Shown here piece by piece: positions 2,910-19,113 of a stretch of 64,000 bases of DNA (positions within the stretch are counted from its first letter, which is position 1; the number at the start of each line of letters is the position of its first letter). Origin of the DNA: an uncultured Planctomycetaceae bacterium (GTDB lineage: Bacteria > Planctomycetota > Phycisphaerae > SM23-33); contig CAZSBS010000001.1 in assembly GCA_964605095.1 (NCBI GenBank), positions 4,790-68,789 on the forward strand. Reading direction: 5' to 3'. A program made the position numbers and the translations under genes. The notes under the pieces were generated by a model. The model was not told the origin of the DNA. It worked only from the letters and a program-made list of their open reading frames with translations, and made no database searches.

Positions 2910-3545
2910 ATGGCAACAATGTTGGAAGTTCCAGTATACGACATCGAAGGCAAGCAGGTTGAGACGCTCCAGGTCGACGAGAACGACTTTGGCGGCTTCG
3001 TCAACGAGGACCTGCTCAAGCAGGCCATCGTGGCTTACCACGCCAACAAGCGGCAGGGATCGGCGTCCGGCCTGACTCGCGGCATGGTCGCGGGCTCGAC
3101 AGCCAAGGCCTTCAAGCAGAAGGGCACCGGCCGGGCCAGGCGAGGCGACATGCGGACGCCGCTCATTCGCGGCGGCGGCAACGCCTTTGCCAAGGCGCCT
3201 CGCGACTTCCGCAAGAAGCTGCCCCGCAAGATGCGCCGGCGGGCACTTCAGTCGGCGATCCTGGCCAAGATGCTCGGGCAGGACCTCATGGTCCTCAAGG
3301 GCCTGGCTGTCAGCGAGCCCAAGACCAAGACCCTCGTCGGAATCCTCAAGAACCTCAAGATCAACCGCTCCTGCCTTCTCGCCCTGGCCGATCGCGACCA
3401 CAACGTTCACCTCAGCTCACGGAACATCGCGGACCTCACCGTTCGCACGGCCGGCGAGCTCAACGCGTTCGACGTGGTCACCCGCCAGAAGATGATTGTC
3501 ACGAGCGAGGCCATGAGTGCCCTTTCGACTCGGGAGTCTGAGTGA
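2910..3545 (+). CDS. rplD: 50S ribosomal protein L4
   Basis: 211 aa; operon position; L4-like composition. Confidence 0.92.
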   Translation: MATMLEVPVYDIEGKQVETLQVDENDFGGFVNEDLLKQAIVAYHANKRQGSASGLTRGMVAGSTAKAFKQKGTGRARRGDMRTPLIRGGGNAFAKAPRDFRKKLPRKMRRRALQSAILAKMLGQDLMVLKGLAVSEPKTKTLVGILKNLKINRSCLLALADRDHNVHLSSRNIADLTVRTAGELNAFDVVTRQKMIVTSEAMSALSTRESE

Positions 3546-3835
3546 TGAAGAAGGACAAAACCTACACCGTGGTCATCAAGCCGCTGGTGACCGAGAAGGG
3601 CACCTTCCAGGCGACGGCGATGAACGCATATCCGTTCGAAGTGGCCACGTGGGCCAATAAGACCCAGATCAAGCTGGCAATAGAGCACATTTACAACGTG
3701 AAGGTCCTGTCAGTGCGGACGTCGTTTCGTCACGGCAAGCCGCGGCGGACCCGCACTAACCGCATGAGCGCGACCAAGCACTGGAAGAAGGCTGTTGTGG
3801 TTCTCCACGGGGAATACCACATCGACCTGTTCTAG
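3542..3835 (+). CDS. rplW: 50S ribosomal protein L23
   Basis: 97 aa; 4-bp overlap with rplD; L23-like. Confidence 0.92.
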
Positions 3836-3855
3836 CAAACCGCGGGACGAGCACG

Positions 3856-4710
3856 ATGGCAATAAAAACATACAAACCGACATCGGCAGGCCGGCGGAAC
3901 AGCACGGTCAACACGCACGAGGAAGTGACCACCACCACTCCCGAGAAGTCGCTGCTCCGCCCGCAGAAGAAGCACGGCGGGCGCAACTTCAGCGGCAAGA
4001 TCACCTGTCGGCACAAGGGCGGCGGCAACAAGCAGCACTACCGCCTGATCGACTTTAAGCGGACCAAGGATGCTCAGGCAGCGGAGGTCATGACGATCGA
4101 GTACGATCCCAACCGCACATGCCACATCGCCCTGGTCCGATACCCCGACGGCGAGAAGCGATACATCCTTGCCCCGCAGGGCCTTAAGGTCGGCAGCAAG
4201 CTCTATTCCGGCGACGACGGCGTCGAGCCGAGGCTGGGCAACTGCATGCCCCTGGCGAAGATCCCCGCCGGCTTGGAAGTACACAACATCGAGATGATTC
4301 CCGGCCAGGGCGGCAAGATGGTTCGCACGGCTGGGGCCGCGGCGCGCTTGGCGGCCAAGGATGCCGGGATGGCCCACCTGGTGCTGCCGTCTGGCGAGAC
4401 CCGCATGGTCAACGCCAAGTGCCGCGCGACGATCGGCCGCGTGGGCAACATGGAAAACCAGGGCGTTCGTGTTGGCAAGGCTGGGCGGAACCGTCACCGT
4501 GGCGTTCGGCCGTCGGTTCGCGGCTCCGCGATGAACCCGGTCGCACACCCGATGGGTGGCGGCGAGGGTCGGCGCAGCGGCGGGCGTCACCCGACCAGCC
4601 CGACGGGCAAGCTTTCCAAGGGCGGCAAGACGCGCAATCGCCGCAAGACTTCCAGCAGGCTTATCATGCGGCGCCGCAAAAATGGTCGCGGTTTGCAACT
4701 GGTTCTGTAA
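3856..4710 (+). CDS. rplB: 50S ribosomal protein L2
   Basis: 284 aa with conserved L2 C-terminal region (...[19 protein letters not shown]...). Confidence 0.95.
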
Positions 4711-17688: not shown

Positions 17689-17712
17689 CAAGAACAGCCT
17701 TTCGTACTAACA

Positions 17713-17805
17713 GGCGGCAGCCATGGCGCTGCCGAGATCGAAACACACGGCGGCTTGGGATGCCCGCAAGGGCGAGTGAATCCCAAGCCGCCGTTCTATT
17801 GCGTT
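17713..17805 (+). terminator. two stem-loops downstream of rplQ; second followed by T-rich run
   Basis: cggcagc-catggc-gctgccg (17715-17734) and acggcggcttggga-20nt-tcccaagccgccgt (17747-17794) then tctattgcgtttgt. Confidence 0.5.
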
Positions 17806-17894
17806 TGTAGTGACGCCGTAAGGCGTTATGTTTATTTGCAATGTCTGCCGCGCGAGGTCCATTCGGGTCGCGCATAACGCCGGCCTGGGCGATG

Positions 17895-18290
17895 TCAGAT
17901 GATTCCCACGGGCACGGCGTCCACGTCCTGGGCAAGGGGTGTGGTTTGCTTGCAGAGGCACAGGACCGCTCCCTGGCCGATGGGCATCTTCAATCGCTCC
18001 AGGGCCTTGAACGGCTCAACCAACTCTCGTCTGGGACTGGCCGTCTTCTTCACCTCGGCCGGATAGAAGACCTGGTCCTGCTGGAACAGGAAATCGACTT
18101 CTGTTCCATCCCGGTCACGGTAGTAATAGAGTTGAGGCGTCTTGCCGCGGTGCCACCAGCTCTTGAGCAATTCACATAGCACGTGCGTCTCAAGGATGGC
18201 TCCGGACATGGCCACGATCAGCCTTGATGACCTGAAGGAATTGCTTACCGTCGAGTCGATCTTGCTGTATCTGAAGGACAAACTCAGCAA
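17895..18290 (-). pseudogene. DUF4143-family (AAA+ ATPase-associated) C-terminal gene fragment
   Basis: 131-aa ORF ...GAILETHVLCELLKS...LYYYRDRDGTEVDFLF...PAEVKKTASP... resembles only the C-terminal DUF4143 domain; no ATPase N-domain; abuts inverted-repeat element. Confidence 0.45.
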
Positions 18291-18310
18291 GACCGCCGGC
18301 TAGCCTCTCT

Positions 18311-18578
18311 AGCCCCGTTCACGGGGCTTCGCCCCCGCGACAGCGGGGGTCTAGACCAGGCCTTTTAGGCCTGGGTAGGCGTCTACGCGCCACCCCTTCT
18401 TTTTGTTTTTCCCTTAGCCCGCTTCAGCGGGCTTACAGGCTCTCGAAAGCCTTCAGGCTAAAGCCGCGCAGAAAGCACGCCGAGGCGTGCTAAACAGAAA
18501 CAACAGGGGTGGGCTGACTCCCCAGGGCTGGAAGCCCTGGTCTATACCCCTTCGGGGCGAAGCCCCGTGAACGGGGCT
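18311..18578. repeat. 268-bp element bounded by ~45-bp imperfect terminal inverted repeats, internal perfect hairpins (MITE-like or structured RNA)
   Basis: left agccccgttcacggggcttcgcccc...ggggtctagaccagg vs right cctggtctataccccttcggggcgaagccccgtgaacggggct; internal gcacgccgaggcgtgc, ccagggctggaagccctgg, caggccttttaggcctg. Confidence 0.55.
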
Positions 18579-18636
18579 GAAAAGCATGGCGGCTAGGGCG
18601 GGAATCTGGTATAAACTTACGCATCATGCATAGGGC

Positions 18637-19113
18637 ATGATGCTGGTCCGGCTTTTCAGGCTCCGAGAAAGTTCCGCTTTGGCGCAAAGGCCCATGAGAG
18701 ACCCCAACTGCATATTCTGCAAGATTATCGACGGTAAGATTCCTGCCGTGAAGGTTCTGGAAACGCCCGAGTTCCTGGCCTTCATGGACATTGGCCCGCT
18801 TGCCGAGGGGCATGTGCTGCTGATCCCGGCTGGGCATTATGAGACGATCGACCAGATGCCGGCCGAGCTGGCCGGGGCAATGCTGGCCCAACTGCCGCGG
18901 CTGGTTCGCGGCGTCCGGGCCGCGACGCTCTGCCAGGGCGTGAACATCCTCCAGAACAACGGCGCAGTCGCCCACCAGGAAGTCATGCACGTACACTTCC
19001 ACATCATCCCCCGCAAGGCCGGCGACGCGTTCAGGTTCAACTGGCCGGCTGGGAAATATCCCCATGGGCGGATCGAGGAGATTGCCGAAGCTATCCGCCA
19101 GAAGCTGGATTGA
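18637..19113 (+). CDS. HIT-family (histidine triad) hydrolase; likely start Met 18694
   Basis: ...CIFCKIIDGKIPA... and HVHFHIIPR histidine-triad motif. Confidence 0.85.
   Translation: MMLVRLFRLRESSALAQRPMRDPNCIFCKIIDGKIPAVKVLETPEFLAFMDIGPLAEGHVLLIPAGHYETIDQMPAELAGAMLAQLPRLVRGVRAATLCQGVNILQNNGAVAHQEVMHVHFHIIPRKAGDAFRFNWPAGKYPHGRIEEIAEAIRQKLD

Follow-up and report, generated by a model that had tools for sequence, protein, structure and literature searches.

What kind of genetic element fills 268 bp of hairpin-packed DNA just downstream of a ribosomal-protein operon in an uncultured Planctomycetaceae bacterium? The segment, positions 18311-18578 of a 64-kb window (the whole stretch analyzed, 64,000 nucleotides of contig CAZSBS010000001.1), had originally been predicted to be either a non-autonomous element similar to a miniature inverted-repeat transposable element (MITE) or a highly structured small RNA (sRNA). 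The explanation favored here, with a probability of roughly 80%, is that it is a gene-less, non-autonomous derivative of a REPtron-like cassette of the Y1 (HUH, IS200-type) transposase group. In full form such a cassette would comprise a small gene for a Y1 transposase acting on single-stranded DNA (ssDNA), placed between two mirror-image arms with four hairpins each that resemble repetitive extragenic palindromic (REP) sequences. The element in the window consists of the two arms, joined by a linker of ~20 nt that holds a stop codon and a possible remnant of a ribosome-binding site, and it belongs to an old, dispersed family of extragenic repeats.

The basic description of inverted-repeat ends and a hairpin-rich interior held up. 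A 25-nt terminal inverted repeat is 100% complementary (18311-18335 against 18554-18578), and farther inward lie two imperfect inverted-repeat blocks (18346-18378/18518-18550, 82%; 18390-18410/18492-18512, 76%). The terminal 25-mer occurs in a single place in the window, and none of 100 shuffles gave a match. There are eight local hairpins, H1-H4 in the left arm and H5-H8 in the right, seven of them perfect; perfect hairpins with a stem of at least 7 bp and a loop of 3-6 nt number 7 in these 268 bp versus ~39 in the other 63.7 kb, a density ~40-fold above the remainder of the window (Poisson probability ~5e-10). The whole-element fold is far stronger than that of shuffled sequences on both strands (z = -12 for +, z = -10 for -), and there is no plausible coding capacity.

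Where might such mirror-image arms come from? When the open reading frames (ORFs) of the related loci retrieved were clustered, one family proved to be linked to the hairpin: seven loci encode a protein of 137-160 aa next to the terminal hairpin, in most cases with hairpin copies on both sides. All seven proteins match Pfam Y1_Tnp (PF01797, IS200-like; E = 7e-15 to 6e-23). Mirror-image arms around a Y1_Tnp coding sequence are present in L096, L113, L145 and L147, and likewise in L146, where the contig end cuts the downstream arm after the inner hairpin; this is an arrangement of the related loci, not of the window. The order in L096 is H1, H2, TTTAGA-H3, a pyrimidine tract, H4 with TAC (stop codon, - strand), the Y1 coding sequence, the leader GGCTAAAGCC, H5, a purine tract, H6-TCTATAC, H7 and H8: this cassette equals the window element plus a gene at its center. 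L145 (from a Phycisphaerae metagenome-assembled genome, or MAG), L146 and L147/L148, which were found through homologues of the Y1 protein, have the same order, and in L096, L145, L146 and L147 the sequence H1-H4, coding sequence, H5-H8 goes together with a TAA that overlaps the inner hairpin, H4 beginning with the final A of that stop codon (TA followed by AGCxCGC...). A profile of gene-less copies (nhmmer) is correspondingly split in L096, model positions 21-157 falling on 3224-3363 and 165-306 on 3826-3982, and the same split is found in L145, L147 and L113, with model positions ~157 and ~165 abutting either side of a coding sequence of 450-480 nt.

Read against these cassettes, the center of the window element retains traces of the gene. 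On the - strand, TAA at 18433-18435 is a relic of the transposase stop codon, collinear with that of L096, L145, L146 and L147. It borders the deletion junction (18436-18455, - strand), which occupies the site of the ~460-nt Y1 coding sequence in gene-bearing relatives; inside this ~20-nt linker, TGAAGG (18450-18455, - strand) is a possible Shine-Dalgarno remnant. Next comes the GGCTAAAGCC mini-palindrome (18456-18465), which in gene-bearing relatives is part of the Y1 gene's 5' leader; it is kept in 15 of the 16 aligned copies and stands directly 5' of the ribosome-binding site and ATG in L096 and L145 (in L147 as GGCTTGAGCC). Almost all gene-less copies have one common short junction, so they descend from one deletion derivative that later multiplied, and among the loci retrieved they far outnumber gene-bearing ones. 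At 3976-4478 in L096, next to the Y1 cassette, are several fragmentary hairpin modules and a second, partial gene-less copy in which the final ~20 nt of the Y1 coding sequence remain; one genome here has an intact cassette together with intermediates of its decay.

Is the conserved structure the long palindrome formed by both arms together, or the set of hairpins within each? Covariation was tested in an alignment of 16 copies (A1) against 500 shuffles, using five measures. For the eight local hairpins, 94.3% of cells are paired, with compensatory change at nine pairs, a result equalled by 0 of 500 shuffles on any measure. The arm-to-arm rod does no better than the shuffles (111-383 of 500), and a long rod-like palindrome, as RNA or DNA, was rejected on that basis. 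A flip in a local stem breaks the long-range pair: H3 and H6 each alternate, independently of the other, between CCAGGCC/GGCCTGG and CCAGGGC/GCCCTGG, and in L009 H8 is doubly compensated (AGGCCGG/CCGGCCT) with H1 unchanged. The Y1 cassettes, too, have a compensated variant of the outer hairpin (AGGCCCG/CGGGCCT). What is conserved is the local hairpins, not the long palindrome.

The inner hairpins carry a further, strand-specific signature. In 14 of 16 copies the + strand has G·U/T as the fourth pair of H5, the variants being A-U and C-G, and the fourth pair of H4 is A·C on the + strand (equivalent to G·T on the - strand) in 10 of 16; given this mirrored asymmetry, each arm is intact on the strand read from the center outward. 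In L007 the inner hairpin is fully formed only on the outward-reading strand, and each arm alone, as ssDNA, folds into a string of separate hairpins. The mirrored asymmetry points to recognition at the DNA level, each arm being recognized on its own strand as folded ssDNA.

The left arm opens with the outer terminal hairpin H1 (18311-18328; AGCCCCG-TTCA-CGGGGCT, a perfect 7-bp stem), which is invariant in 16 of 16 aligned copies, a count biased by the use of H1 as the search key. It is followed by H2 (18332-18349; CCCCCGC-GACA-GCGGGGG), also a perfect 7-bp stem, at whose position other copies have hairpins of differing sequence and length with compensatory pairs. H2 had been taken for an extra hairpin peculiar to the left arm; it does have a right-arm counterpart, the shorter H7 (18547-18557; CCCC-TTC-GGGG, CCCCTTCGGGG), which forms in the right-arm ssDNA fold and whose position in other copies reads CCGCC-TTCG-GCGG. 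The third unit, a TCTAGA tag with H3 (18350-18374; CCAGGCCT-TTT-AGGCCTGG, a perfect 8-bp stem), is 100% paired in the 16 copies with two compensatory pairs (C-G to G-C and A-T to C-G), and its foot, T(A/T/C)TAG(A/G), is conserved across copies. Its opposite number, H6 with a TCTATA tag (18522-18546; CCAGGGCT-GGA-AGCCCTGG, again a perfect 8-bp stem), is likewise 100% paired, one pair being G-C in 10 copies and C-G in 6. A pyrimidine-rich linker (18390-18412), mirrored by a purine-rich tract at 18492-18512, is conserved in composition, not in sequence. The innermost hairpins are H4 (18416-18433; AGCCCGC-TTCA-GCGGGCT, a perfect 7-bp stem) and H5 (18474-18491; AGCACGCC-GA-GGCGTGCT, a perfect stem), and the right arm closes with the outer terminal hairpin H8 (18561-18578; AGCCCCG-TGAA-CGGGGCT, a perfect 7-bp stem).

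Is the element repeated elsewhere, as a mobile origin would suggest? The window itself holds one copy only. A pattern scan for the terminal hairpin plus adjacent arm, covering one genome per species, gave nine loci in MAG CAYOBS01 (labelled "uncultured Planctomycetaceae") and one in a Phycisphaerae MAG, and full-length alignments of the element to at least 10 places in those MAG loci have 68-79% identity and are bounded by the element's own ends. A scan of metagenomes for the 19-nt hairpin matched at least 120 contigs, with ~8 more full-length copies among the matches listed; copies are present in sediment metagenomes. Further copies, which the original prediction had proposed to seek in the same genome, exist in a related MAG and in metagenomes. 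All 16 aligned copies lie outside genes, with the neighboring genes variously tandem, convergent or divergent, and several contigs (L002, L012, L138) stop inside the element, as expected of a repeat. The copies within MAG CAYOBS01 are only 58-82% identical to one another, which indicates an old family. Consistent target-site duplications, for which a check had likewise been proposed, were not found: no consistent direct repeat flanks the 16 copies, with a few short possible ones, as in L007 (GAAGCGA) and L042 (GGsTACAG). A plasmid collection searched with blastn had no match to the element, and a phage origin was rejected, the terminal hairpin occurring in only 3 of 2.9 million viral contigs (IMG/VR, L150-L152), at least two of which have short inverted doublets.

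In most other copies the inverted repeat reaches ~25 nt past H1 and H8 (GTAC(G/C)TGTTTAGCGAC...TTC, then AGCCCC); the window copy is without these outer ~25-nt segments of both arms (GTAC...GCGAC), which are kept in L142 and many others. In one copy (L067 1663-2009, with its orthologue L015 2735-3067) the inverted repeat extends at least 45 nt past the core, with ATACGCATCCAGAATGA on both sides; this copy may sit inside another palindrome or have an outer module of a different kind. Two copies in L013 (2837-3134 and 3530-3839) are 95% identical and have identical 60-nt left flanks, forming a ~700-bp unit in tandem, the sole sign of recent change in copy number.

More distant relatives share the terminal hairpin. 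The 19-nt hairpin AGCCCCGTTCACGGGGCTT was matched in at least 120 metagenome contigs from soils, sediments and freshwater (loci L018-L137, e.g. L053 3895, L032 1969, L093 1285, L103 1310-1565), the usual grammar being H1, then a short CCGCG..GCGG hairpin, then GTAG or ATAG with a further hairpin, for example GCCCGCCGTTCACGGCGGG; the inverted pairs measure 66-289 bp. These loci suggest a far broader REP-like superfamily in which the 268-bp element would form one branch. Doublets of 66 bp, with two inverted terminal-hairpin copies around GGCTTAAGCC, occur in L058 (159-224), L114 (404-469 and 3131-3196) and L131 (4218-4283 and 6199); recurrent within single contigs and with similar flanks on both sides, they are REPIN-sized relatives.

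How long has the window copy been where it is? It lies between rpsD-rpoA-rplQ (+) and a C-terminal DUF4143 fragment (-) on one side and, on the other, a HIT-family gene and two cyclophilin-type (Pro_isomerase) genes (+); the HIT protein has no exact match on record. The fragment, the last 105 codons of an AAA_14/DUF4143 gene (17898-18212, - strand, with a Pfam DUF4143 match), is 91% identical to residues 303-407 of an intact 407-aa gene in MAG CAYOBS01. It had been described as abutting the element; DUF4143 homology in fact stops at ~18212, and 94 nt (18217-18310) intervene, replacing ~1.06 kb of MAG CAYOBS01 and having no counterpart there, after which homology to both relatives restarts exactly at 18311. 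A clean deletion ending at the DUF4143 breakpoint (~18216) was rejected, since these 94 nt are unrelated sequence. The filler contains most of a small ORF on the + strand (18208-18303, 31 aa, MATISLDDLKELLTVESILLYLKDKLSKTAG; listed as 18142-18303, 53 aa) that is a JGI gene call on contig L001.

Homologues of its L17 protein put the source organism among Phycisphaerae-like Planctomycetota. On contig 16 of MAG CAYOBS01 (L17 87% identical), rplQ is followed by three ORFs and the intact AAA_14/DUF4143 gene (-), and the element starts 160 nt beyond it, with 97% identity over the 71 nt to the contig end. In L141/L142 (L17 82% identical) there is no DUF4143, and a full-length element (89% identity by blastn) stands between rplQ (68 nt away) and HIT (185 nt away). 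The same copy at the same locus in two relatives makes it orthologous in three lineages. It had been suggested that the element was inserted right after the ribosomal operon terminator; the position downstream of rplQ stands, a fresh insertion does not. The region from rplQ to the element is rearranged in every lineage (L138 5694-9286, window 17689-18310, L142 836-902): the MAG has three ORFs without Pfam hits and an intact DUF4143, the window the 3' third of DUF4143 only, and L142 neither. The 60 nt left of the element in the MAG (L138 9380-9448) resemble the corresponding 60 nt in L142, so the MAG's extra 3.8 kb entered upstream of this block. On the right, homology to L142 stops a few bases past 18578 and resumes at a conserved block just upstream of HIT. 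There, just 5' of HIT, a perfect 9-bp hairpin (18621-18643; GCATCATGC-ATAGG-GCATGATGC) overlaps the ATG (18637) of the longer ORF and is preceded by the block GGCGGCTAGGGCGGGAATCTGGTATAAA, conserved in L142; hairpin and block may be a promoter or operator.

The window copy has also changed slowly. Aligned globally with L142, the element shows identity at 251 of 268 sites, versus 492 of 580 4-fold degenerate sites taken from six flanking genes (Fisher p = 1.9e-4), and all 17 substitutions lie outside the 102 nt that make up the stems of the seven perfect hairpins (p = 2.9e-4). Slower change than at 4-fold sites and substitution-free stems together indicate constraint on the window copy, concentrated on its stems.

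To which branch of the Y1 family does the partner belong? The proteins score 54.5-73.6 bits with NF033573 (IS200/IS605 family transposase; cut-off 55) and only 17-22 bits with NF047646 (RayT; cut-off 80), a model they fail; their nearest solved structures (PDB) are the IS608 and ISDra2 TnpA proteins. In an alignment of seven proteins of 137-156 aa, the HuH motif is DHIH, NHVH, THVH or DHAH, WQ is invariant, the Y motif reads YVRNQKEHH, YMRNQRKHH and similar (Y---Q--HH), and a DRLER C-terminal tail is conserved. Almost every Y1 protein cluster is found on a single contig, a contig-level hint of low copy number. A motif-level comparison with Table 1 of PMC6006769 would place these proteins in TnpA-Y1 subclass 1.2, for which DH[IV]H, WQ, YIKNQKEHH, a length of ~148 aa and a conserved C-terminal domain are given (PMC6006769). 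That subclass is described as low-copy, not IS-like, "REP: no" and generally without terminal secondary structures (PMC6006769, Quentin et al. 2018), and as occurring mostly in Cyanobacteria and Bacteroidetes (PMC6006769). Two other memberships were rejected: class 3, which has W[TA], YV[VI][AENY]EQ and a median of 178 aa versus WQ, YVRNQ..HH and ~150 aa here, and the E. coli RayT type, which has Y---NP instead of Y---Q--HH and whose model gave too low a score.

The element is a REP/REPIN-like derivative of a Y1 transposase cassette, not a new category. With REPIN/BIME elements and their REPtrons (Bertels and Rainey 2011, PMC3116915; Ton-Hoang/Corneloup, PMC8266576) it shares extragenic inverted palindromic units in many dispersed copies, a cognate Y1/HUH gene flanked by inverted units, the lack of target-site duplication and long-persisting copies. 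It differs in that the partner is not a class-2 RAYT (Y---Q--HH instead of Y---NP, and the failed NF047646 model), in size (REPINs are ~70-110 bp, versus 268-320 bp here, with four different hairpins plus linkers per arm), in a center that retains relics of the transposase leader and stop codon, and in its feet, which are TCTAG/TATAG/TTTAG, TTAG and TTC rather than the GT[AG]G of REPs; GTAG does precede the third hairpin in many of the more distant relatives sharing H1. With TnpA-Y1 subclass 1.2 (PMC6006769) the likeness lies in the HuH motif (DH[IV]H, or NHVH/THVH/DHAH in some), WQ, Y(V/M)RNQ(K/R)xHH, the length of ~137-156 aa, the conserved C-terminal tail and the apparently low copy number; the genes here, however, stand between elaborate hairpin arms with a derived repeat family, and their hosts are Planctomycetota-like and other soil and sediment bacteria.

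Class 3 (PMC6006769), known from Planctomycetes and Acidobacteria, resembles this system in phylum and in having several multi-copy hairpins flanking the gene; these are atypical and reach ~600 copies in Solibacter, and the class was described as an intermediate between insertion sequences (IS) and REPtrons (PMC6006769). Its protein motifs and length differ, and its CnGA foot is not seen here. TIRYT elements (Di Nocera et al. 2013, PMC3733652) likewise have a Y1 gene within long terminal inverted repeats (TIRs) and moderately abundant solo or dimeric TIR copies, but their proteins are mostly of subclass 2.1 with helix-turn-helix tails, and their TIRs share GGGG[AT][CG]A[CG] rather than hairpin arrays. 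IS200/IS605 miniatures (PATE-like) and MITEs such as Correia, Nezha and ERIC are comparable as short, non-coding, structured, multi-copy products of internal deletion. IS200/IS605 elements, however, have dissimilar hairpins on one strand as their ends, in place of the reverse-complement arms and 25-nt perfect inverted repeat found here, and classical MITEs have DDE enzymes and target-site duplications, neither of which is seen.

By analogy with the established mechanism of IS200/IS605 and TnpA-REP, copies would have been spread in trans by a cognate Y1 transposase that binds the folded hairpins on ssDNA, for example at replication forks; TnpA-IS200 and TnpA-REP both recognize ssDNA hairpins (PMC6006769, PMC8266576). 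Each arm would be read on the strand where its own hairpins are intact, and cutting and rejoining next to the hairpin feet would leave no target-site duplication. The window copy itself is most likely an immobile relic, since the outer ~25 nt of both its arms are lost and there is no Y1 gene within 64 kb. A speculative possibility is that it has been retained as a useful or tolerated set of stable hairpins between the ribosomal-protein operon and HIT, for example as a terminator or insulator.

Several other origins need to be weighed against this one. The element might be a miniature of an ordinary, horizontally moving, multi-copy IS of the IS200 group (PATE- or MITE-like) rather than of a low-copy, domesticated RAYT-like gene. 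That the partners match NF033573 and fail the RayT model, that IS608 and ISDra2 TnpA are the closest structures, and that in L077, a distant relative, the hairpins are directly oriented around the gene would all fit such an origin; it is nevertheless considered unlikely, since the arms mirror each other instead of forming distinct left and right ends of a single strand, the Y1 protein clusters are nearly all confined to one contig each, Y---Q--HH and WQ are marks of a subclass described as low-copy and not IS-like, and gene-less copies far exceed gene-bearing ones in the loci retrieved. More improbable is a structured non-coding RNA, whether an sRNA or a cis-regulatory, terminator or mRNA-stabilizing element, with the family being a multi-copy RNA gene family. 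Both strands are indeed predicted to fold very strongly, compensatory changes preserve the stems, the orthologous copy has evolved at a lower rate than synonymous sites, in L142 a gap of 68 nt separates the element from rplQ upstream, and REPs elsewhere do act as RNA elements (PMC3733652). Yet a transposase coding sequence divides the halves in at least five loci, and ancestrally so; the long-range helix lacks covariation; with the mirrored G·T/A·C pairs, a transcript of either strand would have one inner hairpin with A·C mismatches in most copies; and copies stand in every orientation relative to neighboring genes. Nor did Rfam, searched at gathering thresholds, find any family in the whole window or in 20 related loci. 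Within 18100-18800, at E values up to 10, the best match was Acido-Lenti-1 (RF01687), at 14.5 bits versus a cut-off of 37 (E = 1.3); this sub-threshold cmscan match covers 18521-18567 (H6-TCTATAC-H7) and has a like grammar of hairpin, CUA..UA and UUCG hairpin, and Acido-Lenti-1 could itself be REP-like.

A classical MITE would depend on a DDE transposase that recognizes the 25-bp inverted ends and makes target-site duplications, and would account for the perfect terminal repeats and for a small, non-coding, multi-copy element. It is very improbable: consistent flanking direct repeats are not seen at the 16 copies, no DDE transposase recurs beside the repeats (Y1_Tnp is the only recurrent adjacent family tied to the hairpins), and the supposed terminal repeat is itself a hairpin whose stem is kept by compensatory change. 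Of the MITE-like character first proposed, the non-autonomous part survives, given a dispersed family with shared ends and gene-bearing versions of the arms; the classical part does not, the partner being a Y1/HUH enzyme (PF01797) and the TIRs being mirror-image arrays of REP-like hairpins. That the segment is a one-off structured spacer without family or function, as its single copy in the window could suggest, has next to no probability left in view of at least 10 copies in a related MAG, the metagenome copies and the orthologous copy in two other lineages.

The derivation from a Y1 cassette has its own difficulties. No Y1 gene was found by tblastn in the window or in the parts of MAG CAYOBS01 covered. 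An empty site was not found and insertion was not directly observed: relatives with an L17 homologue have either the element (L138, L141/L142) or other downstream genes (L140, L143/L144), giving no filled-versus-empty pair. There is no sign of recent activity beyond the tandem duplication in L013, and the ends of the mobile unit are not sharp, outer inverted-repeat modules differing between copies as in a mosaic. IS200/IS605 enzymes act on two same-strand ends, whereas the arms here are mirror images. The apparent constraint, finally, could partly reflect hairpin-templated repair or gene conversion rather than selection for function.

What would this family mean more broadly? More tentatively than the derivation itself, and at somewhat less than an even chance, the cassettes and their derivatives may form a previously unrecognized REPtron-like system of TnpA-Y1 subclass 1.2: four-hairpin arms in Planctomycetota and other soil and sediment bacteria, with a long-lived arms-only family whose hairpins are kept by selection and whose copies are retained at fixed loci for the benefit of the host, for example as a terminator or insulator after a ribosomal-protein operon. 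A limited literature search found no description of the repeat family or of REPs linked to subclass 1.2. In practical terms, such elements break metagenome assemblies, several contigs ending inside them, and may be misread as structured RNAs. Among domesticated bacterial transposases with a persistent population of miniature partners, REP/REPIN-RAYT systems are the best known, mainly from Proteobacteria and class-2 Y1 enzymes. If the wider proposal is true, this type of relationship between host and element would extend to the IS200 side of the Y1 tree, a group reported to be without REPs showing a REP/RAYT-like lifestyle in a poorly studied phylum. The arms are unusually elaborate, and the gene-less derivative still reveals its own origin; together with the Y1 proteins of the intact cassettes, they offer a concrete substrate-enzyme pair for biochemical tests of hairpin recognition.

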